A DNA stretch of 64,000 nucleotides, from IMG/VR virus record IMGVR_UViG_3300027969_000046; one strand, 5' to 3'. A program made the translations under genes and the position numbers. Below the pieces are notes generated by a model, which did not search any database, was not told the DNA's origin, and saw only the letters and a program-made list of their open reading frames with translations. This document shows positions 529 through 38,583 of this stretch, in pieces (position 1 is the first letter of the stretch; every line of letters begins with the position of its first letter). The stretch comes from a virus.

Positions 529-1232
529 TGTTAATTCTCTACACATTGGTAATGACACACATTACCATTCTTTGTGTTACAATGTATTTACATCGTAGCC
601 AAGCACACCGAGCAGTAACATTTAATCCTGTAATAGAAAACATCATGCGATTTTGGCTATGGCTTACAACAGGCATGGTCACAAAGCAATGGGTTGCTAT
701 ACACCGCAAGCACCATCAAATGACCGACCAACATGGTGACCCACATTCACCAAAAGTATTTGGTATTTGGCGTGTATTATTTGGTGGTGCAGTTCTATAT
801 CATAAAGCATCAAAAGATAAATTGATGGTTGAAACATATGGCAAAGGAACGCCTGACGATTGGGTTGAGAAGAATATATACAGTAAACATTCTCGTCTAG
901 GTATTACTTTGTTATTACTAATAAATTTACTTTGTTTTTCTTGGTGGGGTTTACTCACATGGGGAATTCAAATGATTTGGATCCCATTGTGGGCCGCAGG
1001 TGTGGTCAATGGTATTGGCCATTATTGGGGTTATCGTAACACAGAAACGAATGATACATCCAAAAACATTGTACCAATAGGTTTGATTATTGGTGGTGAA
1101 GAACTACATAACAACCATCACAATAAACCAGCAAGTGCAAAACTATCTGAAAAATGGTTTGAATTGGACATTGGATGGTTTTGGATTAAAACACTAAGTT
1201 ATTTGAAGTTAGCAAAAATCAACAGAGAATAA
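528..1232 (+). CDS. Membrane acyl-lipid/acyl-CoA delta-9 fatty acid desaturase (DesA-like)
   Basis: Three His boxes (HRSQAH, HRKHH, HNNHH), GDPHSP, NGIGHYWGYRN and TM segments; ATG overlaps the nrdB stop (TAATG). Confidence 0.92.
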   Translation: MLILYTLVMTHITILCVTMYLHRSQAHRAVTFNPVIENIMRFWLWLTTGMVTKQWVAIHRKHHQMTDQHGDPHSPKVFGIWRVLFGGAVLYHKASKDKLMVETYGKGTPDDWVEKNIYSKHSRLGITLLLLINLLCFSWWGLLTWGIQMIWIPLWAAGVVNGIGHYWGYRNTETNDTSKNIVPIGLIIGGEELHNNHHNKPASAKLSEKWFELDIGWFWIKTLSYLKLAKINRE

Positions 1233-6735: not shown

Positions 6736-9704
6736 ACGCAAATGAACTAGCTGAGTGGCTTATTGCTTTTACACAAGATGATGTGGATTACGAGGAAAAA
6801 TGGATTAAAGCTTCTGCCATCATGCTACGCCAGCAACACGACCGATTATGCTTGTTAGAAAATATTGTGATGGATTTAAAAGCAACAGTAATAAAGGCAC
6901 AAGAATGAAAATGATACCATTTGTTATTCCCATTGAGGCGGCAGACCAAATTACATTGGCCAATCTACAAGAAGCCCGTAGATATATGTTGAATGAATTA
7001 AAACAACATAAGAAAGGTGACTACTGGATTCATCCAGAGGACATTGGACACTATGGGGGTTATCTCAAGGCGTTAGATGTTTTAATTCCTTACTATGGTG
7101 GTTGAGTATGAGTGATTATAATCCTGATAAATGGTTAGTTGTTAAGATTATTGGAAAAGACACACCGCCAATCTATAAAGTCTTTGCTTGTTGGTATGGT
7201 GGTTATCTTGGCTCTGATTCTTGGAAACTTAATTCAGGCATTACCGCTGTGATTGAAAAAGATGATTATTTCTTCTTTTATGGTTCTAGTGGCTCAGTCT
7301 ATTCTTGTCGCAAGGGAAGTTATGGCGCCAATGGATATGGTCATGGCATTCTTCAGAATATGATAGATAGAATTGAAACAGCAGGCGGAACAGTTGAGGT
7401 TCTGCCTGAAGAAACAAATTGGTTGGAGATAGATTATGAGTGATGATACACATTTTTTAGTTGGTAAAACAGATGAAAAGACTATATTGAGGATCGGTGA
7501 TAGTATTGCCACGACCTTAATAATGAATCAAAAATCCACAGTTGATTTGATTAGGCTTTTAGCTTCCACACTTGATGATGATAAGTGGAAATTTAGTATT
7601 AGAATTGATCCAAAAGGTGAATCTAATGAGTGAAGAAAAACTAGACGGCAAGTCAACCATTGAGTTGAACCTTGATAAAGAATTATTGTTTGATTTGATG
7701 CTCATGGCACACGAGCGGGACATTACTTTGAATCAATTAATTGAAGAAGCATTAAGATTGTTTATTGAAGAACACGAGAAAAACAAATGAAATGGTTAAT
7801 ATATCTAATGATATTTTGCGTAGCCTATTCTATTGGCTATAACAAAGGCATCAACCATGCCCATGTAACAATAGAGGCACCGAAGTGATTGAAATACTGA
7901 TTATTATATTTGCCTTTCTTATGGGCTTTATGATTGGTCGTGATAGGGCGCCAATGGTGATAGACGACCAGGTAGATGAAATAGAACGATTAAGCAAGCA
8001 AGTGGAGTATTACAAAGACCTATGCAAGTGGCATATTAAAGATAAGGAGAGGCTGAGTAAGCGATGACTACATTTAATTATAATCCAGATGATGATGAAC
8101 CACCATTCCTGCTGCCTGGTGACATAGATAGGATGCGACAAGAAGCGAAGCAGAAAATGGGAGGTAAACGACCACTCACTATCCAAGAGGAAATTGTTGC
8201 CGCCTTGTCGAAACCTTTTGTACCTAACATAGAGAATGACCGATGAAAACCGATGTATCTGGCAAATGGATTGCCGTGAGTGATTATAAGACCATGCAAC
8301 AACAAGAAACCGAAGCCATCCTGAATATGGGTGAGTGTATCAAGGCACTAGAGCAACAGTTAGCCAATGCTAATGCTCGTATCACCGAATTAGAGCAACA
8401 AATCTACGGGTCAAAATGAATCCATTAAGTTTACTCAATACTGCTATTGATACACTATGGTATTGGACATATGGTATTCTTGTGGGTTGGGGCGCCAGTT
8501 TTACTATACTTGTAGCACTATTCATAGTAGTATTCATAAAGATAATCCGACTTAACCATCGTATCAATTACCTCAACAACCGATTAGTATCACTTGACCG
8601 AGAAGTCAGCCTAACCCTTAATAAGATAAACAAATGAGATTAGTATATTATAGAGGCCCCGAAGAAGTGGCATTCCAATTCTTTTGGGTCGATGAACAGA
8701 ACCAACGCAAGTCACCGACCTTCTATACCGAAGATGAAGCAAAGCAATGGTTAATTAAGTCAGTAACCACTATCGTAGATGAACCGAAACCGACCATCAC
8801 CGAGAGTAAACCAGATATAGTTCCTAACAAGGCATACACCGATGCCTATAATGCAGGTAAACTATATGCCGAGTTAGCGTTTGTAGAGCTAAAACAAGAT
8901 ATACTAGAACTGATAGAAGATGCCAAACCATCCAAACTACCAGATGTCCTAAAGAGAATTAAAGAATTGCTGAAGTGATACTAGAACATTCACAAGATCC
9001 TGTATCCGCCAAGTGGAATCACACCACCAATAGATGGGATGTAGGGAATAAGAAGAAGTTTAGATGGTGCAACAACAAAAACAAACCAGAATCCGACTGG
9101 TTCTATGATATAACCGATGCCCTAACATGGATAATAGACCACGATGAAAGTAAAGAAACTAATCAAAAAACTGTATAAAGCCATAGTATTACATAACCTA
9201 AAGAGAGAACGGAAAATCTATAAGAAGATTACCAAGAAATCTCTTAAGCATAAACATACAGAAGCAATACAATGAAACCAATCGCCTATCTAATGGTTGA
9301 GAGAAATACCCAAGAAAGATATGTCCAGACTAATACTCCTACAAGAGAGGAGAAGATTAGCCATGAACCATATCCATTATATCACCTAGAAGATGGTGTG
9401 AAAGTATATAATAACCGTGAAGAATATCTATCCGAATCCTTTGATAGAACCGCCAGTCATATGGCAGGTGAGTATATTAGCTATGAAGATAGATTATGCA
9501 CCCATGAAGAGCAAGAAGAATGGCTAAGAAATGTAAGAAAGACAGGATATTAACATGAAAGCAACCGAAGTAAAAACCAAAGAAGATTATATATTATACC
9601 TACAATCCGTCATAGATGATAAGGATAAGGTCATAGAGAACCAAATGAACCAGATAAAGAAACTATTAGGACTGTTAGCCAATAACACAAAACCTGCATT
9701 ATAA
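6732..9704 (+). other. Run of about 15 short, coupled hypothetical ORFs (e.g. 7102-7443, 7436-7633, 7885-8067, 8416-8637, 8634-8978, 9272-9553)
   Basis: Dense same-strand ORFs, many with ATGA/TAATG overlaps; several have single TM segments. Confidence 0.6.
7626..7790 (+). CDS. Ribbon-helix-helix DNA-binding protein (HicB C-terminal-like)
   Basis: TIELNLDKELLFDLMLMAHERDITLNQLIEEAL beta-alpha-alpha pattern. Confidence 0.6.
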   Translation: MSEEKLDGKSTIELNLDKELLFDLMLMAHERDITLNQLIEEALRLFIEEHEKNK

Positions 9705-20368: not shown

Positions 20369-21040
20369 ATGGACAAGATATCTTTCAATGAGTTTACTGA
20401 AGCATCAAAGGTAAACATCAAAGCTGAGCCTAAAGTATATCAATACGAAAAAACTCAGTATGTTGTTGTTGATGATGTTTTGGTAGAACCAGATAAATTG
20501 TTAAAATATTTGGATAAGTTTCCCGCCTTAGATAAGGAAGATTTTCTTAGAAATGGTAAAGTGATTAGTTATGCGCCAGGTTTACAACAATTAATTTCCG
20601 CAAATTATTTACAAGAACTTACTCATTATTTTAATAATCTACTTTACCCAATGATTGGTAAAGAATTTAGAATTGATTGGTATACAAATATATTTTATCC
20701 TGATATGAATGTTACAGAAACCGCTCGTTTACCCCATGTTGATACTTTTGACATGGCTATTAACATTTGGTTAACTGATAATCATAAAGATGATGGAACT
20801 GCCTTTTACAAAAATGGAGATAAGTATTATGGTGATAGCATCAAATACGATTTTGTAGAAGATAAAGAATCTAAATGGCAACCATTTGATGGAAATACCG
20901 ATTATGAAAAGTATTTGGTCGTACCATCAAAATATAACACCGCTGTAATTTATAGTGGAAAGTTTTATCATTCGGCATATTATGTACCACAAACAAACAA
21001 GGAAAGAAAGTCGCTAGTTGGCGCCCTATTCTTATTATGA
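20369..21040 (+). CDS. 2OG-Fe(II) oxygenase-like protein (DUF6445-like)
   Basis: VVDD, PG, PHVD, GTAFY, KYN..VIYSG..YHS. Confidence 0.65.
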   Translation: MDKISFNEFTEASKVNIKAEPKVYQYEKTQYVVVDDVLVEPDKLLKYLDKFPALDKEDFLRNGKVISYAPGLQQLISANYLQELTHYFNNLLYPMIGKEFRIDWYTNIFYPDMNVTETARLPHVDTFDMAINIWLTDNHKDDGTAFYKNGDKYYGDSIKYDFVEDKESKWQPFDGNTDYEKYLVVPSKYNTAVIYSGKFYHSAYYVPQTNKERKSLVGALFLL

Positions 21041-21885
21041 TATTATTTGACTTTAACCAAGTAGCGATTGCTAACTTGATGGAACAAATTGGTTCTTCAA
21101 AGACACCAGTAGATGAATCATTGGTTCGCCATATGATTCTAAACACTATTCGTACCTATGTGAAGAAGTTTAAAGCTTCTCACGGTCCTGAAGTTGTGAT
21201 TGCTTGCGATAATAAGAAATATTGGCGCCGTGATGTGTTTCCGCATTACAAGGCACACCGCAAGAAAGCACGACAATCTTCTGGTCACGATTGGGGTTCT
21301 ATCTTTGAAGTCCTGAATAAAATCCGTGATGAGTTGAAAAACCATTCGCCATACAAAGTGATTGATGTTGATACTGCTGAAGCTGATGATGTGATTGCCG
21401 TATTGGCAACCCGTTACGCTTCTATTGGTAAGGTTATGATTCTCTCCTCAGATAAAGACTTTGCACAATTGCAAAAGTTTTCTAATGTTGAGCAATATTC
21501 GCCTATTTTAAAGAAAGCGATTAAAGAACCTTTACCTTCATTACAGTTGAAACAGTTGATTATTCGTGGTGATAAAGGTGACGGTATTCCTAACATTTTA
21601 AGTAAAGATGAAACCTTTATTGAAGGTGCTAGACAAAAGCCTATTACCGAGGCTAAGATTATAAACTGGTTGAACCAAGACCCTAGTGAATTTTGCACAG
21701 ATGAAATGTTGCGAAACTTTAAGCGTAATGAAATGCTGATTGATTTAACTCAGATTCCAGAAACACTTAAACAAAGCATCATAGATACCTATGAAAGCAC
21801 TAAAGGTCATACTAGACAAGAGTTTATGAATTATATGATTGCTAATCGTTTGAAAAATTTAATTGAGGTAATAGATGAGTTCTGA
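21037..21885 (+). CDS. rnh: T4-like RNase H / 5'-3' exonuclease
   Basis: DFNQ, YWRRDVFPHYKAHRK, EADDVIA, SSDKDFAQL, GDKGDGIPN. Confidence 0.95.
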   Translation: MILFDFNQVAIANLMEQIGSSKTPVDESLVRHMILNTIRTYVKKFKASHGPEVVIACDNKKYWRRDVFPHYKAHRKKARQSSGHDWGSIFEVLNKIRDELKNHSPYKVIDVDTAEADDVIAVLATRYASIGKVMILSSDKDFAQLQKFSNVEQYSPILKKAIKEPLPSLQLKQLIIRGDKGDGIPNILSKDETFIEGARQKPITEAKIINWLNQDPSEFCTDEMLRNFKRNEMLIDLTQIPETLKQSIIDTYESTKGHTRQEFMNYMIANRLKNLIEVIDEF

Positions 21886-22312
21886 AATCCTATATTCGGA
21901 GATATTAAAAAAGTTTGATGATGCACCTAACCGTGCTGGCAAGCTTGCGGTATTACAAAAAGAGGGTGACCCTAGATTCAGAGATTTTCTATTCTATGCT
22001 TTTCATCCTGATATCAAATTTGATATTCAACCACCAGAATATCGTCCTGCGATTGAACCTGCTGGTTTAAATTTTACTTACCTCGATTCTGAGGTCAATA
22101 AACTGTATCGCTTTATTACTGGTCATGCTAAAAAGTCGCCAGACTTGAAACCATATAAACAAACACAATTGTTATTGGTTATTTTAGAATCATTACATAA
22201 AGATGAAGCTGAATTGTTGTGTAAGATGTTTAAAAAAGATTTAGCTGTCAAGTATCTAACTCCACGCCTTATTAAAGAAGCTTATCCAGAAATTAATCTT
22301 CCGTTGGAATAA
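21875..22312 (+). CDS. Conserved T4-like hypothetical protein (DUF6433-like)
   Basis: ILESLHKDEAELL, IKEAYP; usual position after rnh. Confidence 0.6.
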   Translation: MSSEILYSEILKKFDDAPNRAGKLAVLQKEGDPRFRDFLFYAFHPDIKFDIQPPEYRPAIEPAGLNFTYLDSEVNKLYRFITGHAKKSPDLKPYKQTQLLLVILESLHKDEAELLCKMFKKDLAVKYLTPRLIKEAYPEINLPLE

Positions 22313-22315
22313 ATT

Positions 22316-23086
22316 ATGAAAGTAGCGGTAATAACACCCACAATTGGCAATCCTAAACTAAGTGATGCTTTAAAGTCGGTTGATAAACAGACTTATAAAG
22401 ATTTAACCCACTACATCTTCATTGATGGAAAAGAACATAAACAAAATGTTCATAAACAAATTGAAGGTGCTAGTAAGGTTAAGTTAATTGAATTGGAAGA
22501 AAATGTTGGTAAAGGCTGGTACGGACATCGTGTGTTCGCTGCCAGTTCCTTTCTTGTGAACGCTGACATTATTGTGTACCTTGATGAGGATAATTGGTTT
22601 GAACCTTGTCATGTTGAAAAATTGGTGAAAAAAATTGAAGAAGGCAATGATTGGGCTTATTCGCTCAGGAAAATTTATGATAAAGATGGAAACTTTCTTT
22701 GTGATGATAATTGCGAATCGTTGGGTAAATGGCCTGTTTACTTTAATGATGGCGTGTTTCATATTGATACCTCCTCTTTTGCTGTTAGGCGTGATGTCGC
22801 TGTTCGTATCGGTCATGCTTGGTACGGACAATGGGGTGCAGACCGCCAGTTTTTTGGTGCGTTAAAGTCCAATTTTCCAAAGTTTGATTGTACCAATGCA
22901 CACACCTCTTGCTATCGCCTTGATGGCAATCCAAACTCTGTTACTAAAGAATTCTTTGATAAAGGTAACGAAGAAAATAGCAAAAAATACTTTGGTCAAT
23001 TTCCATGGAAGAATGGTAGCAAATTACTTACCATTCCAAAAGAAAAAATCGAAGAAGTGGGGCCTGGTATAAAGATTGTGTTATGA
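22316..23086 (+). CDS. Glycosyltransferase family 2
   Basis: VAVITPT, SV..QTY, IDG, YLDEDNW (DxD), GADR. Confidence 0.88.
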   Translation: MKVAVITPTIGNPKLSDALKSVDKQTYKDLTHYIFIDGKEHKQNVHKQIEGASKVKLIELEENVGKGWYGHRVFAASSFLVNADIIVYLDEDNWFEPCHVEKLVKKIEEGNDWAYSLRKIYDKDGNFLCDDNCESLGKWPVYFNDGVFHIDTSSFAVRRDVAVRIGHAWYGQWGADRQFFGALKSNFPKFDCTNAHTSCYRLDGNPNSVTKEFFDKGNEENSKKYFGQFPWKNGSKLLTIPKEKIEEVGPGIKIVL

Positions 23087-24027
23087 AAACGGCATTAGTT
23101 ACTGGCGCTTCTGGTTATCTTGGAAGTCACCTCTGTAAGTATCTCAGAAAGAATGGTTGGAAAGTAATTGGTCTGGACATAAAACATCCTGAGCACCAAT
23201 ATTGGGACATATTTGAATTCTGTGATGTCCGTGACCGACAAGAGCTTGATGGTGTATTCTTTCACCATAAGATTGATGCGGTGTTTCACTTAGCAGGCAG
23301 AATCGAAGTTGGTGAGTCCATGAAAGACCCAACAGAATTTTGGGAAGTCAATGTCGCAGGCACCTGTATGGTTCTAAACTGTATGAAGCATTATGGTGTG
23401 GAATACATCATATATTCTTCTACCGCAGGAGTGTATTGGCCAAGTAAACGATTGATTAGTGAAACCGAGGCAGTCCTTAATAATCATGTTTATGGCAGTA
23501 GCAAGCACGCTGCCGAAAACGCTATCGAGGACTCTGGTATTAAGCATATCATTTTCCGATACTTTAATTTGGCTGGTGCTGATCCAGATAACGATATTGG
23601 TGAAAACCATTCACCAGAAACCCATCTGATTCCTAGAATCCTTCAAAATCTAAATAGTTTTGAATTATACGGTGATGACTATGATACACCAGATGGCTCG
23701 TGTATCCGTGATTATGTCCATGTTTCCGATGTTGCTGAGGCACACATTTCAGGAGTTGAATACCTGATGAATGGTGGCGAATCTCAGCTATTAAATTTAG
23801 GTACAGGAAAAGGGCATTCCAATTATGAGATTATTAACCTCATTACCGATGAATTAGGATTACCTGTAAAATACAAAGTAAAGGCAAGACGGCAAGGTGA
23901 CCCCGACCAGTTGGTTGCCGATATTACTCTTGCTCAAAAAGTATTGAATTACCGCCCAAAACATGATATACTATCAATATTGAAAACAGCTTATGAGTGG
24001 CATAAAGAGTATGACAAGAAAATTTGA
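23083..24027 (+). CDS. galE: UDP-glucose 4-epimerase
   Basis: LVTGASGYLGSH, VGES, SSTA, YGSSK, RYFNLAGA, GSCIRDYVHV, RRQGDP. Confidence 0.92.
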   Translation: MKTALVTGASGYLGSHLCKYLRKNGWKVIGLDIKHPEHQYWDIFEFCDVRDRQELDGVFFHHKIDAVFHLAGRIEVGESMKDPTEFWEVNVAGTCMVLNCMKHYGVEYIIYSSTAGVYWPSKRLISETEAVLNNHVYGSSKHAAENAIEDSGIKHIIFRYFNLAGADPDNDIGENHSPETHLIPRILQNLNSFELYGDDYDTPDGSCIRDYVHVSDVAEAHISGVEYLMNGGESQLLNLGTGKGHSNYEIINLITDELGLPVKYKVKARRQGDPDQLVADITLAQKVLNYRPKHDILSILKTAYEWHKEYDKKI

Positions 24028-26594: not shown

Positions 26595-27928
26595 TGAAAT
26601 TTACTAGTTATAAAGACCGTGAATTATTTGATACAAGGCACGGCGGTTGTTTTGATAGAGGTTCAGCTGATAGTTATTACCATCGTGGTATTGAGCCACA
26701 CTATTATGTTGGTGATACCTTGTCAAGTGAAAAAATTACTGCTTTGACAGAATCCGAAATTGGTGAATATATGGCAGGTTATTTTTGGAATGAACAGTTT
26801 GGTGATAAGAAAGATTGGAATTAAAATGAAAGTTGTTTATATTGTAAAATCATTTGGTCCCGAAAATGGGTATGTTAATCTTAAAGCGTTTGCTGATTTA
26901 GAAGATGCTGAGGCTTATCATGCGGTTGTTGCAAAACAAATTCCTGATGATATTGAAGATGAATTTGTTGAAATCGAAGAATTGATGGTGGATTATGGTT
27001 AAATTTTTAATATGTGTAGCGTTGATAATGTTAATAATTTATCTATTAACACCAGTATTAATAATGGCTATGTTTAGTTTTGTATTTTTAAAGGCAATAA
27101 TTTTATTATGATTAATCTTGAACAGTTTAGAAAATCTGGTGTTTGTGCAATTTACCACCGAGTGCCTATTGAATTTCTTGATGAATTCAGAAGTGAAATG
27201 GCAAAACAAGGTAAGTTTTTCAAAATACGATATCGTGGTCCCCGCTTCAATGTGCCGTCCGCTCGTTATCGTAGCTTTATGAGTAAAGCAAGCACTTGTT
27301 TAAAACAAGATGCAAAAGCATTTTCAGTTTATAATTATTAAGATTTTGGAGTTTTAATGAGCTTTGATTTTGATGTAGAAAATGTTTACATGGTTGAATT
27401 TCAATCTGGTAAAACCATTTATGTAAGTTTTTATGAAGTTGAAGATGTGTTGGAATATTGTGAAGATGAATATCCAAAAGAATTCATCAAAACAATCTAT
27501 AAAGAAGTTTATTCTAATGATGGAGAAAATGAATAATGGGAACTAGAAGTTTAACCTATGTGTATGATGATTTGGAAAAGCCAATCATTTGTATGTATCG
27601 CCAGTTTGACGGCTATCCGTCAGGTCACGGTGTTGAGTTGTCGGAATTCTTAACACAGATGACGGTTGGAAATGGAATCTCTGGTTCGCCAGAGTTGTTT
27701 AGTTTTGCAAATGGTATGGGTTGCTTGGCAGCTCAGATGATTGTGCATTTCAAAAAATCACCTGGTGGTTTTTATATTTACGCAATTGAATCTGATATGG
27801 ATTGCTGGCAAGAGTATGAATACCACATCTATGCAGATAAATTGGTTGTGAAGAATCCTACCGAAGTGATTTTCGAAGGTTCTTATGAAGAATTTATGTC
27901 ATTTTGTTACGATGAGGTGACTGAATGA
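26594..27928 (+). other. Early hypothetical ORFs (26594-26824, ~26826-27002, 27108-27341, 27536-27928)
   Basis: RHGGCFDRGSADSYY and MGTRS...YRQFDGYP are common phage motifs. Confidence 0.65.
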
Positions 27929-27949
27929 GGCAAACATGGGCGATGCCTC

Positions 27950-27978
27950 TTGACAAGTTCGCCTTTTTGTGTTACAAT
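27950..27978 (+). promoter_or_regulatory. Sigma70 promoter without operator
   Basis: TTGACA-17-TACAAT. Confidence 0.75.
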
Positions 27979-28014
27979 GGTTGTTCGTTAAATTGATAAA
28001 TGGAGATTTATATT

Positions 28015-28404
28015 ATGGCAAAAGCTGCTAAAAAAATGAAGTTGAAACCCTTTCAGAAATTATTGACAGTAATGATTTCTGGTAAGCAAGTTAGTAAAGA
28101 ACAGATTGAAACTTTGCTTGGCAAAGAAATTCAAATGTACCGTATTTCCACATATATGTGGCATATCAAAACTAATGCCAATGGCATTATCAAAGTGGTT
28201 AAAGATGGCCGTAAAGTATCAGGCTATCAACTAATCAATGTGGCTGAAGTGAAAGACTACATGAAGCGTGTTGGTGTGTTAGATGCAGGTTTTGTTCCTG
28301 TATCAACATTGGCTGACTTGAAGGCACCAGAAGTTGCAGTTGCCAAGAAAGTTAAAGCTACACCAGTCGCAGAAGAAATGTCTGTAACTGAAATTACCGA
28401 GTAA
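28015..28404 (+). CDS. Putative winged-helix DNA-binding protein
   Basis: Basic N-terminus; helix-turn-helix-like VSKEQIETLLG...ISTYMWHIK followed by a beta-hairpin (VVKDGRKVSGYQL). Confidence 0.5.
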   Translation: MAKAAKKMKLKPFQKLLTVMISGKQVSKEQIETLLGKEIQMYRISTYMWHIKTNANGIIKVVKDGRKVSGYQLINVAEVKDYMKRVGVLDAGFVPVSTLADLKAPEVAVAKKVKATPVAEEMSVTEITE

Positions 28405-28411
28405 TAGTTTT

Positions 28412-28585
28412 TGCTAATGGGAGAATAGCGGGACTTCATGCGAGCTTGTAAGTCGGAGATGCCGAGTATCTATGGTACTGTAAAAATGGATCGTCCGCAT
28501 TTAAAGTGCTCATACAGGAGAAGTCCGCTCATTCTTAAACAACAGCATTATGCTCGCTGTGAAGCGCCAGTTGTGTCCCTTAGCA
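28412..28585 (+). ncRNA. Candidate ~175-nt structured RNA
   Basis: GC-rich intergenic segment with several nested complementary stems (see findings). Confidence 0.6.
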
Positions 28586-28610
28586 TCTTTTTAAATTACA
28601 GAAAGGTTAT

Positions 28611-28835
28611 ATGAGCATATTGGATTTAAAGGCAAGACCTGTAATCGAATTTGATGCTAGTAATCCTCAACACCGTAAATATTTTGCTGCTTTCATAAAG
28701 AGAAAATCTTGGGGTTATATTCCTATCAGATTTGCGGTTCGTGGCTCTCGTACCGATTTGGTTACACAAATTGAAAGAGATTTGGTTGACTATTATGTAT
28801 ATAAAGAATTTAAAGTAAAGAACACATACAGATGA
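28611..28835 (+). CDS. Hypothetical protein
   Basis: ORF with RBS; FDASNPQHRK...SWG.PIRF. Confidence 0.6.
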   Translation: MSILDLKARPVIEFDASNPQHRKYFAAFIKRKSWGYIPIRFAVRGSRTDLVTQIERDLVDYYVYKEFKVKNTYR

Positions 28836-29104
28836 ATAATAAACAAAAAGAAGTTTTATCAATTGCTCAAGAAGAATGTGGTGAAGTCATTGTAGCAATT
28901 AGTAAAATCTTCCGTTTTGGTTTTGATTCTCGTTGGCCTGAAGGTGGTGTCGATAATCGAGCCAGACTTACGGAAGAATTGGGTGATTTGATGGCGATGA
29001 TTAAATTAATGAGTGAACACGGCATTATTGATATTGAAGAAATGTCCAAAGCGGGTGAACGAAAGATAACCAAACTAAAAACTTGGTCGAAATTATATGA
29101 TTAA
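28832..29104 (+). CDS. MazG-like NTP pyrophosphohydrolase
   Basis: QEECGEV...SKIFRFG...LTEELGDL. Confidence 0.8.
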   Translation: MNNKQKEVLSIAQEECGEVIVAISKIFRFGFDSRWPEGGVDNRARLTEELGDLMAMIKLMSEHGIIDIEEMSKAGERKITKLKTWSKLYD

Positions 29105-29179
29105 TACATGGGCATTGGTTTTATGGATTGGTGTTACAAGTAATAATACCATCCATGAGCAATTTACAAGCAAAGAAAA

Positions 29180-29956
29180 ATGTTTAGAATCTCAAAGAAC
29201 AATGGCAAACGCATTAGCTTCGGTAAGTTCAAAAGTAAATGCCGTTTGTCGACCTATACAGCGTTAATGTTGTTGGCATTTAATGCTAACGCTGTAACTG
29301 GTGTCGGTGAGTACCGATTTGGTCCCGATACTGCTGAGAATTTTGCTTGTGAAGTTGCGGAAATTAAAGCAAAAGAAGATGCTTTGATTAAGTCCAATGG
29401 TGAATACTTGGACTCAGCTATAGAAGAAATTTGTTTAAGTGAAGAATGTAGGTTTAACAGACAGACATACAGTAAGATTGAAGGCAACATTAAATCAATT
29501 ACTGATATTAGAAAATCTGTTAAAGTAGAGCAAGGATACAAAACTTGTATTGTTACCATTTCTGCTAATGTAGAAAGATTTAGGAATACAATTGAGTTTG
29601 TAGTTGATGGTAAGTATGATTTGAAACACGGAGAAATTGTTGAATTTGTTGGCAGTTCTAACCAAGAAGGCAATCTATTCGTATTCAATTATTATGATGG
29701 TAAGTATGTGAGAATCATACAACATAGAATTGCCACAAAATGGCAAAAATATATGTTACCATCCAAGCCATCAGTATTAAAAGCACAAGTGCCTGAAGGC
29801 CAAGTGCAGAGTAAAGAGTTGTTGTTGTTTTTATTTGTGACCAACGATGTGTCTATGAAAAGTAGTTATACCGATAACGAATTGAAATCGGTTATTGCTC
29901 AGATACCAGCGAATTCTCGCAAGGTTATCACAAGACATATTAATATTATGAGGTAG
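29180..29956 (+). CDS. Exported protein, C-terminal DUF4384-like Ig domain (true start may be 29267)
   Basis: LLAFNANA signal-like segment, paired Cys, beta-rich C-terminus. Confidence 0.5.
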   Translation: MFRISKNNGKRISFGKFKSKCRLSTYTALMLLAFNANAVTGVGEYRFGPDTAENFACEVAEIKAKEDALIKSNGEYLDSAIEEICLSEECRFNRQTYSKIEGNIKSITDIRKSVKVEQGYKTCIVTISANVERFRNTIEFVVDGKYDLKHGEIVEFVGSSNQEGNLFVFNYYDGKYVRIIQHRIATKWQKYMLPSKPSVLKAQVPEGQVQSKELLLFLFVTNDVSMKSSYTDNELKSVIAQIPANSRKVITRHINIMR

Positions 29957-29959
29957 TTT

Positions 29960-30670
29960 ATGAAAAAGAAGTTATTAGTAGCACTAGTCCCACTAATTCT
30001 ATTGTCGGCTTGCGGTAGCGTACCAAAGCAAGGTGACTCTGCCAGTTTATTTGGCAAAGGCGCTAAGTCTGGTGATACTGTGGCTTTTCCTGAATGGTAT
30101 TATGCAAAGCCAGATGATAGCGCTCTCTACTCGGTATCATCCGAGTATTCCAAAGATTTACAATTTGCAGTTGATAAATCCATGCTATCAGCAAAGCGTG
30201 AATTAGCAGGCAAGTATTCATCATATGTTTCTGCTATGATGAAAGACTTTACCGCAGAAGTTGGTAATTCAGATGACATTAGCCGTGATATCGAAAGAAC
30301 AACCAAACTGTTAATTGCACAAGTGAATTTAATTGGCATTAGGCGTGTCCATTTTGAAGTTCGCCATGAAGGCGCAGGCTATCGCTCATTCGTCCAGTTA
30401 CGATATTCATTAGATGATTCTAACCGATTGTTGGTTGAGAAGATTCGTGCTGATAGAAAACTAGATTTAGCCTTGCGTAAGTCGGCAGCGTTCCGTGAAT
30501 TAGAAGATTCAGTTGATAAAGCTAATGGTGTGCCAAAAGCCGAATCTAAACCAGTTGAACCTGCTACTACTGATTTGACTGCTAAACCAGTTTCGATGAA
30601 AGCAACAATTAGTGATTCCAATTCTGCTATCACTAAAGGTATTGATGAAACACCTGTGAAAGTTAATTAA
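29960..30670 (+). CDS. Lipoprotein (LPP20-like)
   Basis: MKKKLLVALVPLILLSA-C lipobox; PEWY, AKRELA. Confidence 0.75.
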   Translation: MKKKLLVALVPLILLSACGSVPKQGDSASLFGKGAKSGDTVAFPEWYYAKPDDSALYSVSSEYSKDLQFAVDKSMLSAKRELAGKYSSYVSAMMKDFTAEVGNSDDISRDIERTTKLLIAQVNLIGIRRVHFEVRHEGAGYRSFVQLRYSLDDSNRLLVEKIRADRKLDLALRKSAAFRELEDSVDKANGVPKAESKPVEPATTDLTAKPVSMKATISDSNSAITKGIDETPVKVN

Positions 30671-31269
30671 TGAATTTAGACCAGAAGTATCTAGCGCTTG
30701 ACCTAGAGTTAAATAATGCTCAAGATGGTTCAACACCAAACCCAAAGATTATTCAAGTTGGTGTTGCCATCGGTTCTGCTAGAGAAAACCCTAAAGAATG
30801 GATTACTAAGAAGTGGTATGTTAAGATTAACGACCCAATTTACCCATTCATTACGGATTTAACTGGTATCACTACACAAGATATTCAACAATTTGGTATG
30901 ACACACTATGACATTGGCCAAGAGTTGAGTAGATTAATTAAAGAGCATGATGTATTCGTAAATCCTGTAACTTGGGGTGGAGGAGATTCTACCGAGTTGA
31001 AGGATGAATTCGATAAGCATGGTATTGAGTTTAGACATTTTGGTCGCCGATGGATTGATGTAAAGACTTGGTATACACTAAGACTGCTTGCAAATGGCAA
31101 AAGACCAGCGGGTGGTTTATCATCAGCAATGGGTGTTTATAAATTACAGTTTGAAGGCGAAGCACACCGAGCTGATGTTGATGCCTACAATACATTAAGG
31201 TTGTTTTTTGAAATTTTAAAAAGGCAAAAACAGATGCTGGATACAGTATCACTAGCGAAAGGTTTATGA
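30670..31269 (+). CDS. DEDDh 3'-5' exonuclease
   Basis: LDLE, IIQVG, LTGIT, WGGGD, HRADVDA. Confidence 0.88.
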   Translation: MNLDQKYLALDLELNNAQDGSTPNPKIIQVGVAIGSARENPKEWITKKWYVKINDPIYPFITDLTGITTQDIQQFGMTHYDIGQELSRLIKEHDVFVNPVTWGGGDSTELKDEFDKHGIEFRHFGRRWIDVKTWYTLRLLANGKRPAGGLSSAMGVYKLQFEGEAHRADVDAYNTLRLFFEILKRQKQMLDTVSLAKGL

Positions 31270-31542
31270 TGAAAAAGTTTTTGAATTACCTCAAATATAG
31301 TGGATTAAATGTTACAATTAAGTTTAATCCCTATCACTGGCGATTAGCTGCAAATTATTTTGTAACTAATGAAGCATGGGAACAAGACGCTCTGGTAATA
31401 GAGATTCTCCCAATAACTGTAAGACTTTGGATTGATGACGGAGAATGGTAATGATAATGAATTTATTTAATAAGATTTTTGGTAAAAAGAAACAATATGA
31501 CTTTGCACCTTTAGAACAGGTGATGAGAGAATGGGCTAAAAA

Positions 31543-32085
31543 GTGAACATATTTTATCTTGACCATGATGCTGTTAAATGTGCGGAATATCACAATGACA
31601 AACACGTGGTTAAGATGATTTTAGAATATGCTCAGCTTCTTTCTACTGCTCATCGTGTGCTTGACGGCACTATCTCTGTTCGGCTCTCTAAAACTGGTCG
31701 AAAGCAAAATTGGTATCATCTTGGTGATTCTCGTGATAATGTTCTTTATAGTGCTACTCACATTAATCATCCTTCCGCTAAGTGGTGTAGAGATTCTAAT
31801 GATAATTACCAATGGCTCTACGAATTGTTCTGTGCCACCTGTAATGAATACACCTTCCGCTATGGGAAAACTCATCTAACAGACAAGAAGCTTCGTCATG
31901 TATTGGCACAATCACCAAAAAATATTTCACACGACCCATTTGAAGCACCTTGGCGTGCTATGCCAGACGAAGTGAAAATCGGTGATGATTCTCTCGCTTC
32001 CTATCGGAACTACTATATAAAGAACAAGTCGCATTTAGCGAATTGGAAAAAACGAAAGGTTCCTGATTGGTATGCCAACATATAA
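31543..32085 (+). CDS. Pyrimidine-dimer DNA glycosylase (DenV-like family)
   Basis: NIFYLD...HNDKHVVKMILEYAQLLSTAH, THINHPS, EYTFRYGK.H, YRNYY. Confidence 0.8.
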   Translation: MNIFYLDHDAVKCAEYHNDKHVVKMILEYAQLLSTAHRVLDGTISVRLSKTGRKQNWYHLGDSRDNVLYSATHINHPSAKWCRDSNDNYQWLYELFCATCNEYTFRYGKTHLTDKKLRHVLAQSPKNISHDPFEAPWRAMPDEVKIGDDSLASYRNYYIKNKSHLANWKKRKVPDWYANI

Positions 32086-32398
32086 TTTTATTGATACCGA
32101 AACTGGTGAAGAAATTGAAAAGTTCATGTCATGGTCACAGCGTGAAGAATTCTTAAAAGAAAATCCTAATATCGAAGTGATTATTACCGCACCTGCAATT
32201 GTATCATCAAGAGGTGGTACAAATGACCAAAAGGCTGGCGATGGATGGAGAGAAGTGTTATCTAAGGTAGCAGAGAAACATCCTGGCTCGGTTGTTGGTG
32301 AACGATATGGTAAAAAATCTATCAAAGAAGCAAGAAGTTCTCAGGTGGTTAAAAAACACGTTGACAGGATTACAAAAAGATTGCAGAACAAACGATGA
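32072..32398 (+). CDS. FmdB-like small protein lacking the Cys ligands
   Basis: MPTYNF..TETGE, GWREVLSKV...HPGS. Confidence 0.6.
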   Translation: MPTYNFIDTETGEEIEKFMSWSQREEFLKENPNIEVIITAPAIVSSRGGTNDQKAGDGWREVLSKVAEKHPGSVVGERYGKKSIKEARSSQVVKKHVDRITKRLQNKR

Positions 32399-33081
32399 TT
32401 TTTAACCATGTCAAACTACCAGAATTAGATTTTGAATTAGAAGCAAAGACTACTGAAAAAGGTAGAGTATATTACACACCTTCAGGTAAAGCTTATCCAT
32501 CGGTAACAACCGTATTAGGTTCTTTATCTAAAGCAGGTATTGATGCATGGCGAAAAAAGATTGGTGAAGAAGAAGCCAATAAAATCTCTGGTCGTGCTAG
32601 TCGTAGAGGTGAGGCATTACATTTAGCTTGTGAAAAATACTTGTTGAACGAAATGGACTTTAAGATGAAACGAAAATTGATGCCAAACATCAAGGAGTTA
32701 TTCTTACAGTTACAACCATACCTTGATACTAATATCGGCAACATCTATTCTATTGAGCAACCACTTTATTCAGATAATTTAAAGATTGCTGGTCGAGTTG
32801 ACTGTATTGCTGAATGGGATAATGAAATTGCGGTGATTGACTTTAAAACTTCCACTAAAGAGAAGCTAGAAGGTTACATTCAAAACTATTTTCAACAATG
32901 TACCTGTTATGCAGAAATGTTTGAAGAAATTACAGGCAAACCAATTGACAGAATCGTTGTGGTAATTGCCGTTGAAGATGGGCAATCACAGGTCTTTGTT
33001 CGTAGCAAGAAGGCATACTTGCCTCCATTGAAACAAACCATCAGCGATTATTACCTCAAAAATAAGATGGTTGTAGTATAA
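32395..33081 (+). CDS. PD-(D/E)XK exonuclease
   Basis: R.YYTP.G..YPSVTTVL, RG...H, AGRVDCI, IDFKTS, Q...YA. Confidence 0.88.
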   Translation: MIFNHVKLPELDFELEAKTTEKGRVYYTPSGKAYPSVTTVLGSLSKAGIDAWRKKIGEEEANKISGRASRRGEALHLACEKYLLNEMDFKMKRKLMPNIKELFLQLQPYLDTNIGNIYSIEQPLYSDNLKIAGRVDCIAEWDNEIAVIDFKTSTKEKLEGYIQNYFQQCTCYAEMFEEITGKPIDRIVVVIAVEDGQSQVFVRSKKAYLPPLKQTISDYYLKNKMVVV

Positions 33082-33082
33082 T
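33051..33082 (+). promoter_or_regulatory. Class-2 promoter TTACC-N21-TATAAT
   Basis: Same spacing as at 4286, 12447 and 17206. Confidence 0.45.
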
Positions 33083-33306
33083 AGCTTCACTATGCCACTT
33101 ATTACTGAAACAATCCACGAAGTTATTGATAATCCGCCAACGATTCATAAGTATGATGAGTTTGTGGATGCCAATATGTTTTATGTTGTCTTATTTGCAA
33201 CATTGGTAATCTATATTCTTAGAAAACCTATGTTGTTTATATTTGGCCTTATTTTCAAGTTATCTCTAGCGAGTGCATTTGTTTATTATTGTTATACACT
33301 TACAAA

Positions 33307-33924
33307 ATGAAAATCTATATCTCAAAATACCGTAGTCATTGGGTTTCTCCATATAAAATCTTGGAGAAAATATATTTTTGGCGTGAAATTGATTATGATG
33401 AACCTATCATTAAGAAATGGTCTGACCGATTACAGCCTTTTTGTGAAGCGTGGCAAAAGTTTTTAGATACGGTTCATCCTAGAATTCAATATGTTAAGAT
33501 TGACCAATGGGACACTTGGTCGATGGATCATACCTTAGCATATGTTGTTTTACCAATGTTGAAACAATTAAAAGAAACAAAACACGGTGCACCAATGACC
33601 GATGATGAAGATGTTCCTGATAACCTTAAAAGCACAAGTGCAAAACCAAAAGAAGATGAATGGGATACAGATGAGTTCCATTTCCAAAGATGGGATTGGA
33701 TCCTTGATGAGATGATTTGGGCTTTTGAAAGAAAAACGATTGATGATGATGAATCTGAATTCTTTGACCATTCAGAAAATGAACCTGGTGGTTTTCCTTG
33801 GGATAAAGATGGTGCATATGTAAGTAAAACCAAAGTTGATTGGGAAGGTTTGAAAGCACACCAAGCAAGAAAGACAAATGGCTATCGCCTGTTTGGTAAA
33901 TATTACGAAGCACTTTGGGATTAA
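33307..33924 (+). CDS. Conserved phage hypothetical protein
   Basis: DTWSMDHTLA..LPMLKQL...HGAP, LDEMIWAF, LFGKYY..LWD. Confidence 0.7.
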   Translation: MKIYISKYRSHWVSPYKILEKIYFWREIDYDEPIIKKWSDRLQPFCEAWQKFLDTVHPRIQYVKIDQWDTWSMDHTLAYVVLPMLKQLKETKHGAPMTDDEDVPDNLKSTSAKPKEDEWDTDEFHFQRWDWILDEMIWAFERKTIDDDESEFFDHSENEPGGFPWDKDGAYVSKTKVDWEGLKAHQARKTNGYRLFGKYYEALWD

Positions 33925-37645: not shown

Positions 37646-37689
37646 TATACATTTAATACAAATACATTTTTATACGAGGTAATACAATG
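37646..37689 (+). promoter_or_regulatory. Unstructured ATAC-repeat leader, candidate gp32 autogenous translational operator
   Basis: TTATAC ATTTAATAC AAATAC ATTTTTATAC GAGGT AATAC AATG. Confidence 0.5.
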
Positions 37690-38583
37690 AGTTCATTTGC
37701 AAATCTAAAGCGCAATCGTAGTTCCATGGACAAACTAACCAAGGCGATTGAAGCTACCCAATCCGGTTCATCAGAATCCGGTTCAAAAGACGATACTCGC
37801 TTTTGGCAACCATCAGTAGATAAATCTGGCAACGGCATGGCTGTTGTTCGTTTTCTCCCAGCACCAGCAGTTGATGGTGATGATGCCTTACCGTGGGTTC
37901 GCACATTCAGTCACGGATTTCAGGGACCTGGCGGTTGGTTCATTGATAACTGTTTGACTACTTTGAATGATAAGTGTCCAGTCTGCGAACATAACAATGT
38001 TCTGTGGAATTCTGGCATCGAAGCAAACAAAGAAATTGCTCGCAAGCAAAAGCGTAAGTTGACATATATTGCCAACATTTTGGTTATTTCAGACCCAAGC
38101 AATCCTGAAAACGAAGGTCAAATCAAACTGTATAAGTTTGGTAAAAAGATTTTCGACAAGATTTCTGAAGCGATGAATCCAGAATTCGCTGATGAAACAC
38201 CAGTTAATCCATTTGATTTGTGGGATGGTGCAAACTTTAAGTTGAAGATTCGTAATGTTGAAGGCTATCGTAACTATGACAAGAGTGAATTTGCCGATGC
38301 AAGTCCTCTCTTTGAAGGTGATGATGCCAAATTGGAAGAATTGTGGAAGAAAGAGTTTTCTCTTAAAGAGTTTACTGCCTCATCACAGTTCAAACCATAC
38401 GAGCAGTTGAAAGGTCGTTTGGACAAAGTTCTAGGTGCACCAGTTGCAGCTAGTAAGGCAGAAACTGCTGATATTAGTCCATTCAAGTCGGAAGAAGCTA
38501 AAAGCATTCCTTCTGCAAAGGCGCCTTCATTAGTTGAAGATGATGATTTGGATTACTTCAAGTCATTAGCAGACGCTGAATAA
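37687..38583 (+). CDS. gp32: Single-stranded DNA-binding protein gp32
   Basis: DTRFWQP..DKSGNG.AVVRFLP, HGFQGPGGW, NC.TT...CPVC, FGKKIFDKI, acidic tail. Confidence 0.96.
   Translation: MSSFANLKRNRSSMDKLTKAIEATQSGSSESGSKDDTRFWQPSVDKSGNGMAVVRFLPAPAVDGDDALPWVRTFSHGFQGPGGWFIDNCLTTLNDKCPVCEHNNVLWNSGIEANKEIARKQKRKLTYIANILVISDPSNPENEGQIKLYKFGKKIFDKISEAMNPEFADETPVNPFDLWDGANFKLKIRNVEGYRNYDKSEFADASPLFEGDDAKLEELWKKEFSLKEFTASSQFKPYEQLKGRLDKVLGAPVAASKAETADISPFKSEEAKSIPSAKAPSLVEDDDLDYFKSLADAE

Follow-up and report, generated by a model that had tools for sequence, protein, structure and literature searches.

The stretch at positions 28412-28585 of the window (the whole 64,000-nucleotide stretch of viral DNA that was analysed, IMG/VR record IMGVR_UViG_3300027969_000046) was confirmed to be a genuine member of a conserved structured RNA family. 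Approximately 52 distinct members were collected, all of them from predicted viral (phage) contigs of IMG/VR, and the family is restricted to such contigs, which are uncultured. The members have in common a three-way junction of about 55 nt, maintained by covarying base pairs and found in several different genomic contexts. The family is new as judged against Rfam 15; the 10,006 candidate structured RNAs that have been catalogued from IMG/VR (PMC10690425) lie outside this comparison.

Family collection and conserved structure

Loci were gathered through the protein encoded upstream of the RNA and by means of two DNA patterns placed on the conserved core, CGCTNATTCTTAAACNAC and GGAG-gap-AYTCTTAAACRAC. 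The covariance model R1, whose E-values are rough owing to a shortened calibration, was used to part true members from chance pattern matches. As a negative control, 85 of 89 loci of the GGAG-gap pattern that lay outside the motif filter gave no R1 match at E < 0.05. The pattern scans predefine part of the core, whereas the loci anchored on the protein are free of selection on RNA sequence. The element was present in 28 of the 80 loci fetched through the protein, with the same core and with informative variants. Since these loci were unselected for RNA sequence and nearly all of those with the element keep the UUAAA strand, conservation of the core is not a product of pattern bias. Members range in size from 50 to 180 nt, with minimal forms of 50-60 nt. 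Approximately 20 large forms, the window copy among them, carry a bulged rod with a covarying base, a shared A-rich bulge, and a covarying apical hairpin; minimal members have a 4-9-nt loop in its place.

The core is composed of helices A, B, C, and D and a UUAAA strand. Helix A (GGGR/YCCC plus two to six more pairs; 7-10 bp) closes the molecule and joins both ends. Helix B (GARU/AYUC) follows helix A directly on the 5' strand with no linker, and past it lie one variable pair (U.U, A-U, G-U, G-C, or C-G) and a bulged nucleotide on the 3' strand. Helix C (GCG/CGC) bears the variable arm, which extends from the short loop of minimal forms up to a rod of about 100 nt, as in the window. Helix D (C-G, R-Y, a bulged A, C-G) abuts helix A without a linker and can contain a hairpin with a GNRA loop (GGGA, GUGA, GAGA, or GCGA). 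The junction strand UUAAA is identical in 47 of 48 members and is UCAAA in the remaining one. The parts of the window copy are as follows.

28412-28422 (+): 5' strand of helix A, with the extension UGCUAA, bulged U28418, and core GGGA (28419-28422); partner 28576-28585
28423-28431 (+): 5' strands of helices B and C, with GAAU (28423-28426), the pair A28427-U28529, and GCGG (28428-28431); partner 28525-28534
28432-28524 (+): optional rod on helix C, with ACUUC/GAAGU, GAGC/GCUC, CGGA/UCCG, the A-rich bulge UAAAAAU, and an apical hairpin at 28465-28479
28525-28534 (+): 3' strands of helices C and B, CCGC-U-C-AUUC, with C28530 bulged
28535-28539 (+): junction strand UUAAA, unpaired
28540-28575 (+): third arm, helix D, with C28540-G28575, A28541-U28574, bulged A28542, and C28543-G28573
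28555-28566 (+): hairpin in helix D, CGCU-GUGA-AGCG, with a GNRA loop
28576-28585 (+): 3' strand of helix A, UCCC-UUAGCA; outer pairs 28412-28417/28580-28585 and GGGA/UCCC 28419-28422/28576-28579

In the set of 41 distinct sequences, 92.8% of cells were paired, compared with 41-56% when the partners were slid. The value for core pairing was likewise 92.8% in 48 sequences that included distant members, with 41-55% in the slid controls. Two-sided changes were found in 17 of 26 pairs, and the observed covariation score was reached by 0 of 500 shuffles (both for the 41-sequence set). Within helix A, columns 9/251 (GC 38, AU 7) and 12/248 (GC 31, AU 17) covary in the 48 sequences, and the subgroup from tRNA arrays has the closing helix AGGA/UCCU. 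Compensatory variants of helix B are GAGC/GCUC (L261), AAGU/ACUU (L265), and GAGU/ACUC. The pair 18/150 occurs as GC (9), AU (6), CG (5), and GU (3), and the pair 162/246 as A-U (29), G-C (14), and G-U (5), with no unpaired case in 48 sequences; the hairpin in helix D also covaries (UA/CG, AU/GC). The junction core contains approximately 20 invariant nucleotides and seven invariant base pairs, and it remains near-invariant while the flanking proteins drop to about 50% identity. A mutual-information scan for tertiary pairs gave nothing beyond an extended helix D.

Unconstrained folding of the window copy gave a minimum free energy of -59.3 kcal/mol, with interior pairing at odds with the comparative structure. 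When the fold was constrained to the family core, the value was -53.9 kcal/mol and nearly all of the helices listed in the earlier note, which had been made from the letters of the window, were regained. Folding z-scores were -2.95 for the plus strand and -2.35 for the minus strand, a signal that is modest to weak taken alone; the decisive evidence for the fold is comparative covariation and not thermodynamics. The outer stem TGCTAA-GGGA/TCCC-TTAGCA described in that note is present both in the sequence and in the core-constrained fold, which also contains the base of the rod (28423-28437 with 28520-28534), GAGC/GCUC, CGGA/UCCG, the apical AGUAUC/GGUACU hairpin, and the CGCU/AGCG hairpin, the last of which covaries in the family. 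The branch drawn there as ACAAC/GTTGT exists as an arm, and covariation places its pairs one position away from that register, at C28540-G28575 and A28541-U28574; the AGCA/UGCU hairpin placed within it is confined to a subfamily and has little support. The reported enrichment in GC was borne out (46.6% G+C in the RNA stretch versus 36.6% in the whole window, within the top 1.6% of 174-nt windows), as was the preference of G-U pairs for the plus strand: columns 15/153 pair as G-U in 27 of 48 sequences, which fixes the strand as plus.

A small protein-coding gene would be the alternative to a structured RNA. The 58-codon frame recorded earlier at 28438-28614 exists and is open in the window, as it is in several large-form relatives. 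However, the family as a whole keeps no reading frame: which of the three frames stays open through the invariant core varies from member to member (24, 4, and 13 of them), the 5' ATG is absent in many, differences in length are not divisible by three, and the minimal forms are too short for the peptide. The comparison of frame with pairing that had been suggested for this stretch thus came out with the pairing kept and no frame kept, which favours a non-coding RNA and leaves the coding alternative with a negligible probability.

Genomic contexts and distribution

The window belongs to an uncultured T4-like myophage, as indicated by gp32, T4-type RNase H, DenV-like, and DexA-like domains. A VrlC-like protein of 1980 aa points to Pelagibacter phage Mosig and Methylophilales phage Melnitz as its closest cultured kin. 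The RNA sits between ORFs of 134 and 74 aa, and a MazG gene comes next.

27950-27978 (+): sigma70 promoter, near-consensus TTGACA-17-TGnTACAAT (11/12, extended -10), about 440 nt 5' of the RNA
28000-28404 (+): wHTH gene, 134 aa, phage-specific; its linker is disordered and rich in Lys, Ala, and Pro, and its tail, ..VTEITE, is acidic
28611-28835 (+): downstream gene, 74 aa, not a constant partner of the RNA

The promoter at 27950 most likely drives both the wHTH gene and the RNA, and no intrinsic terminator was found 3' of the window RNA. The 134-aa protein had no match among Pfam or PHROG families and has 590 relatives. Its AF2 model has an H-H-H-E-E-H topology (pLDDT 70), for which the Foldseek matches were generic ArsR/PadR-type wHTH proteins, and by this predicted fold it is a generic phage wHTH protein. 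It is not an obligatory partner of the RNA. The L065 and L067 contigs, both incomplete, contain the RNA and no detectable wHTH gene, and the RNA is missing from about two thirds of wHTH-locus relatives and is therefore dispensable.

Several further observations were made at these loci. At the same site after the wHTH gene, RNA-less relatives have a plain GC-rich hairpin (L018 3405-3450, L025 3348-3385); among these and L015 (679-800), the site is occupied either by such a hairpin or by a hairpin together with a new consensus promoter. A deletion or chimera was seen at L042 1267-1360, where the RNA has lost its 5' half and the wHTH frame continues straight into what remains, the 3' half. The wHTH domain and the 'MRGNFIMSDSFFTVAGVS...' domain are unrelated N-terminal domains that are both joined to the same type of Lys/Ala/Pro-rich linker and acidic C-terminal motif (..EEMxVTEVTE / ..EDLEIEELKQIAA; window 28340-28404 and the upstream ORFs of L065, L069, L039, L297, and L307). 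Both types of protein are encoded just 5' of the RNA, behind a consensus promoter.

Four contexts were distinguished. In the first, which comprises 29 members, the RNA follows the wHTH early gene and begins 10-21 nt past the stop codon. In the second (five members), it follows an unrelated early gene with a similar acidic tail, and a tRNA array comes next in two of these. The third consists of 10 loci within tRNA arrays of the same strand. The fourth places the RNA after the major tail protein gene (phrog_158; four members) or after a phrog_1250 gene (two members). Within the arrays, the order in L343 is tRNA-Glu, 6 nt, the RNA of 55 nt, 10 nt, and tRNA-Tyr; the spacers to the flanking tRNAs are 8 and 13 nt in L348 and 7 and 13 nt in L324, and L336, L344, L330, L287, and L396 have a tRNA on one side within 6-13 nt. 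The L067 RNA is part of an array of 25 tRNAs; a TTGACA-17-TATAAT promoter of its own precedes it by 67 nt, and a sequence that reads by eye as tRNA-like comes 11 nt 3' of it. The array members were not called as tRNAs by ARAGORN or Rfam. The RNA was present as one copy per genome in five of five IMG/VR records, including a complete genome of 214 kb, and two diverged copies were found in the L348 array. Because the same core occurs in at least four contexts with a variable downstream gene, the element is an autonomous, portable module and the regulator of no particular gene.

The genes 3' of the RNA include members of the 74-aa family, MazG, RpoZ, DenV-like genes, tail chaperone candidates, tRNAs, and others. 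In mRNA contexts the next start codon is 10-39 nt away, and this distance, along with a closed P1-like helix and a conserved junction, would suit a riboswitch aptamer acting on the downstream gene. A riboswitch would be expected before one downstream class and with an expression platform; the downstream genes are instead unrelated, tRNAs included, and no expression platform, conserved terminator, or SD-sequestering strand was found, so that this explanation is very improbable. The RpoZ case is an RNA polymerase omega homologue at L039 2208-2444 (-), directly 3' of the RNA (PF01192, E = 4.6e-11), and the same arrangement is present in its copies L044, L058, and L070.

A promoter comparable to that of the window, near the sigma70 consensus, is located 350-725 nt 5' of the RNA in 38 of 41 related loci, statistics that mostly reflect one syntenic arrangement, and 52-67 nt upstream in L344 and L067. 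Such a position would be in keeping with a cis-acting processive antiterminator that modifies RNA polymerase, comparable to HK022 put, lambda nut, or EAR, and that would shield long early operons and untranslated tRNA arrays from Rho; the L067 RNA does head an untranslated tRNA array. The sequence CUUAAACAA agrees at 8 of 9 positions with CUUUAACAA, which we take to be the boxA consensus, and is followed by a GNRA-type hairpin, as in boxB. The lambda nut arrangement of a single-stranded GCUCUUUAACAA-like boxA, a boxB hairpin, and an N-like protein was, however, not found: only CUUAAACAA resembles boxA under the presumed consensus, the GCUC part of the would-be boxA is base-paired with covariation, the upstream CGC and AYUC are likewise paired with covariation, and no N-like protein or gene was detected. 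Pairing of the 5' half of the would-be boxA accounts in part for the resemblance and weakens it. For the members behind the tail and phrog_1250 genes, such a promoter is missing within 1 kb, and some array members follow 10 tRNAs.

The put element of HK022 is an RNA of about 70 nt with two stem-loops arranged in a V with a triplex, is present twice per genome (putL and putR), and has its putR copy some 270 nt from the start of transcription (PMC9378689). In the present family, a promoter, a small HTH gene, and the RNA succeed one another in a series that mirrors lambdoid pR-cro-nutR/putR (PMC9378689). Like put and nut, the family is a structured RNA placed soon after a strong early promoter and a small HTH gene, and it needs no fixed downstream gene. 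Unlike put, it has a different fold, is present as one copy per genome rather than two, and also occurs in the middle of arrays and in late tail operons. On balance, antitermination is regarded as quite improbable.

For the window, Rfam 15 (4227 families) at the gathering score returned only three tRNAs, at 16.7-17.9 kb, and Rfam and ARAGORN together found nothing else. The description of the stretch in the earlier note as an unassigned, multi-stem, plus-strand RNA that is not a tRNA, tmRNA, SRP RNA, or RNase P RNA therefore agrees with these searches and with the covariation. The RNA of L067 had no match in Rfam 15 at the gathering score, and nothing credible was obtained at E up to 10 with the window copy and two mini forms. 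BLAST searches of 50,697 phage records with the region as 1 kb of sequence and with a mid-size member produced no genuine match. The family model detected no element in five cultured relatives (Mosig, Melnitz, vB_OspM_OC, OLIVR5, and phiM9); the same search found it in five of five IMG/VR records. A scan for the exact core in the genomes of 185,579 prokaryote species gave 114 matches, all of them lacking the 5' flanking motif, and these were accordingly taken as chance.

Other elements were noted in the tRNA arrays. A second conserved element of about 200 nt, with no Rfam match, is present at L067 ~9200-9430 (-) and in L283 (G007, ~59.5 kb); its sequence is GGGGGYGGTCAACCGT...GTGCCCA...GTGACAGRGTGTGCAA, and it is possibly a further orphan RNA. 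Two arrays share a conserved, unassigned spacer between the RNA and the next tRNA, about 100 nt long, GAGGTGACGCTAC.GTCGTAACTGCCCGGGCAGGAG...GCATGGCCTCAGATC, at L287 3180-3350 (-) and L348 ~690-800 (-). Two tRNA-like sequences around the L067 RNA, at 9795-9700 and 9500-9425 (-), were missed by ARAGORN and Rfam; one is Tyr-like, with a long variable arm and an encoded CCA, and the other is Gly(UCC)-like, with an oversized D region. A 13-mer that is shared with a tRNA-cluster spacer recurs in G007 and G008, where the second site is without the family core. Many related contigs encode their own tmRNA on the same strand, 1.5-4.5 kb 3' of the RNA (L021 6094-6467, L033 8845-9232, L026 4073-4459, L045, L049, L053, L054, L056, L066, L068, L072, L075, and L314); the window has none. 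The tag peptides are ANDESYALAA, ANDERFALAA, ANDSQFALAA, and similar sequences, which would point to betaproteobacterial lake hosts for these related phages.

Proposed role and competing explanations

The reading that we tentatively prefer, with a probability of about 0.4, is that of a discrete stable RNA that is excised from polycistronic transcripts and acts via its junction on a conserved partner. In the window, the RNA would be co-transcribed with the wHTH gene from the strong early promoter at 27950 and then set free, as a separate stable molecule with paired ends, by the nucleases responsible for maturing neighbouring tRNAs or mRNAs; in the array forms, the nucleases maturing the flanking tRNAs would have to cut it out. 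We infer a stable excised species solely from the 6-13-nt spacers to flanking tRNAs, and the 7-10 bp closing helix that joins the ends, as in other stable RNAs, is consistent with it. The released RNA would act in trans, presenting a docking site formed by coaxial helices A and B, the UUAAA strand, the bulged nucleotides, and the seven invariant pairs. Its partner would be conserved across hosts and is most plausibly a gene-expression or RNA-processing protein. The rod and the GNRA hairpin may be optional stabilising ornaments. Release and docking are suggested by the combination of the closing helix, tRNA-like spacers, near-invariant junction, optional domains, and restriction to phages.

The main weakness of this proposal concerns timing. 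The RNA is placed in an early operon in T4-like phages and in a late tail operon in siphovirus-like contigs, which is at odds with a stage-specific RNA acting in trans and fits a cis processing module better. Because of this inconsistency, a self-cleaving ribozyme and an RNase punctuation element are the two strongest rivals.

The first would be a new class of small self-cleaving ribozyme, serving phages as a transcript-cutting module at gene boundaries and at tRNA trailers or leaders. The 50-60-nt minimum, the approximately 20 invariant junction nucleotides with optional peripheral domains, the independence of context, and the confinement to phages all agree with such an activity, as does a position that is always at a boundary, 10-21 nt past a stop codon or 6-11 nt past a tRNA. 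A precedent by analogy is offered by the theta ribozymes, minimal HDV-like ribozymes that lie within 5 nt of phage tRNAs, are found to about 99% in Caudoviricetes, and have been proposed to process tRNA 3' trailers (PMC10879173). The present family and the theta ribozymes beside tRNAs of gut Caudoviricetes resemble each other in a size of about 50-60 nt, near-exclusive occurrence in phages, a distance of a few nucleotides from tRNAs, and freedom from neighbouring protein genes. Theta ribozymes form a nested double pseudoknot, whereas the present family is a plain nested three-way junction with five junction nucleotides only and has no HDV-type Rfam match. Hammerhead, twister, pistol, hatchet, and HDV-like models gave no match at E up to 10 in the window copy and two mini forms, and in our own reading of the aligned sequences a continuous 7-bp P1, as in HDV-like ribozymes, is impossible. 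The invariant positions are mostly Watson-Crick pairs in helices and in this respect look more like a recognition surface. Self-cleavage is therefore considered possible though unlikely. The more specific form of the idea, in which a putative ribozyme built on the UUAAA three-way junction would free mRNAs after the stop codon and trim tRNA trailers and leaders as a counterpart of the theta ribozymes, is a shade more doubtful.

According to the second rival, the element would be a cis-acting punctuation or stability signal for a host RNase (RNase P, E, or III) that separates a highly expressed upstream mRNA from the downstream genes and guards the new ends, the excised RNA itself being functionless. 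The RNA does lie directly 3' of highly expressed genes (either the early gene that comes first after a consensus promoter or the gene for the major tail protein), it occupies tRNA-like slots with tRNA-like spacers in arrays, and the plain hairpins of the RNA-less relatives L018 and L025 are at the same site. A mere stabiliser or cleavage site, however, needs no junction that is invariant across unrelated phage groups, tRNA arrays need no extra punctuation, and no conserved terminator-like U tract is present 3' of the RNA. This explanation is judged rather improbable.

The excised, junction-docking RNA that we prefer also has to be set against the likenesses suggested in the earlier note, namely a 6S-like decoy of RNA polymerase, a retron msr-msd-like RNA, and an antitoxin RNA. 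The size of the window copy, about 175 nt, and its long bulged rod do recall 6S RNA. The rod, however, is an optional insertion that is missing in the 50-60-nt members, which leaves the 6S analogy unsupported, and the conserved core is without the central-bubble architecture of 6S RNA. Among 6S-type rows of Rfam at E up to 10, only Bacteroidales-1 appeared, with 12.5 bits against a gathering score of 60 (E = 9). In line with the note, no RT domain was found in the scanned ORFs 27536-30670, 20369-24027, 30670-33924, and 37687-38583. The retron likeness is unsupported, given this result, the lack of repeats and of an RT gene among the neighbours, and the occurrence of the element in tRNA arrays and late operons. 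No toxin gene among the neighbours and no tandem repeats were found that would go with an antitoxin. Taken together, these three likenesses are most unlikely to hold.

Relation to other phage RNAs and significance

As a kind of molecule, the family is closest to T4 rnaC and rnaD (species 1 and 2), to which it is not homologous. These are likewise stable phage RNAs other than tRNAs that lie in a tRNA array; they are cut from the tRNA precursor, and their roles have been unsolved for decades. When the family model was applied to the T4 tRNA region with filters off, no match was obtained at rnaC or rnaD. T4 rnaC ends, as read by eye, in a tRNA-like T-arm sequence, whereas the present family is a three-way junction with UUAAA.

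The C4 RNAs of P1 and P7 and the CI RNA of P4 are phage regulatory RNAs that are matured by RNase P from longer transcripts. By analogy, the present family may resemble them as small phage RNAs cut from polycistronic transcripts by the tRNA-processing machinery. They differ in that C4 and CI RNAs act as antisense RNAs via their loops, whereas the loops of the family are variable and complementary targets are not in excess in the window. There, the reverse complement of the core had 10 matches, itself included, versus 5.3 +/- 2.2 expected; this is no enrichment and does not support an antisense seed. The Rfam C4 model had no match in the window.

T4 rnaC and rnaD are among the few orphan stable RNAs of phage tRNA arrays and early operons, to which the family contributes a clearly delimited example. 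Its core, about 55 nt long, is kept almost invariant across at least three to four unrelated phage groups while its surroundings change, and such conservation in a portable, phage-only module implies a specific activity, either the binding of a conserved host factor or catalysis. The size of the minimal forms makes them accessible to cleavage assays, pull-downs, and crystallography. If the RNA is a ribozyme, or a decoy for a host factor of gene expression or defence, it would provide a new tool and a new chapter in the RNA biology of phage and host; if it is only a processing signal, it would still explain how transcripts are punctuated in these phages.
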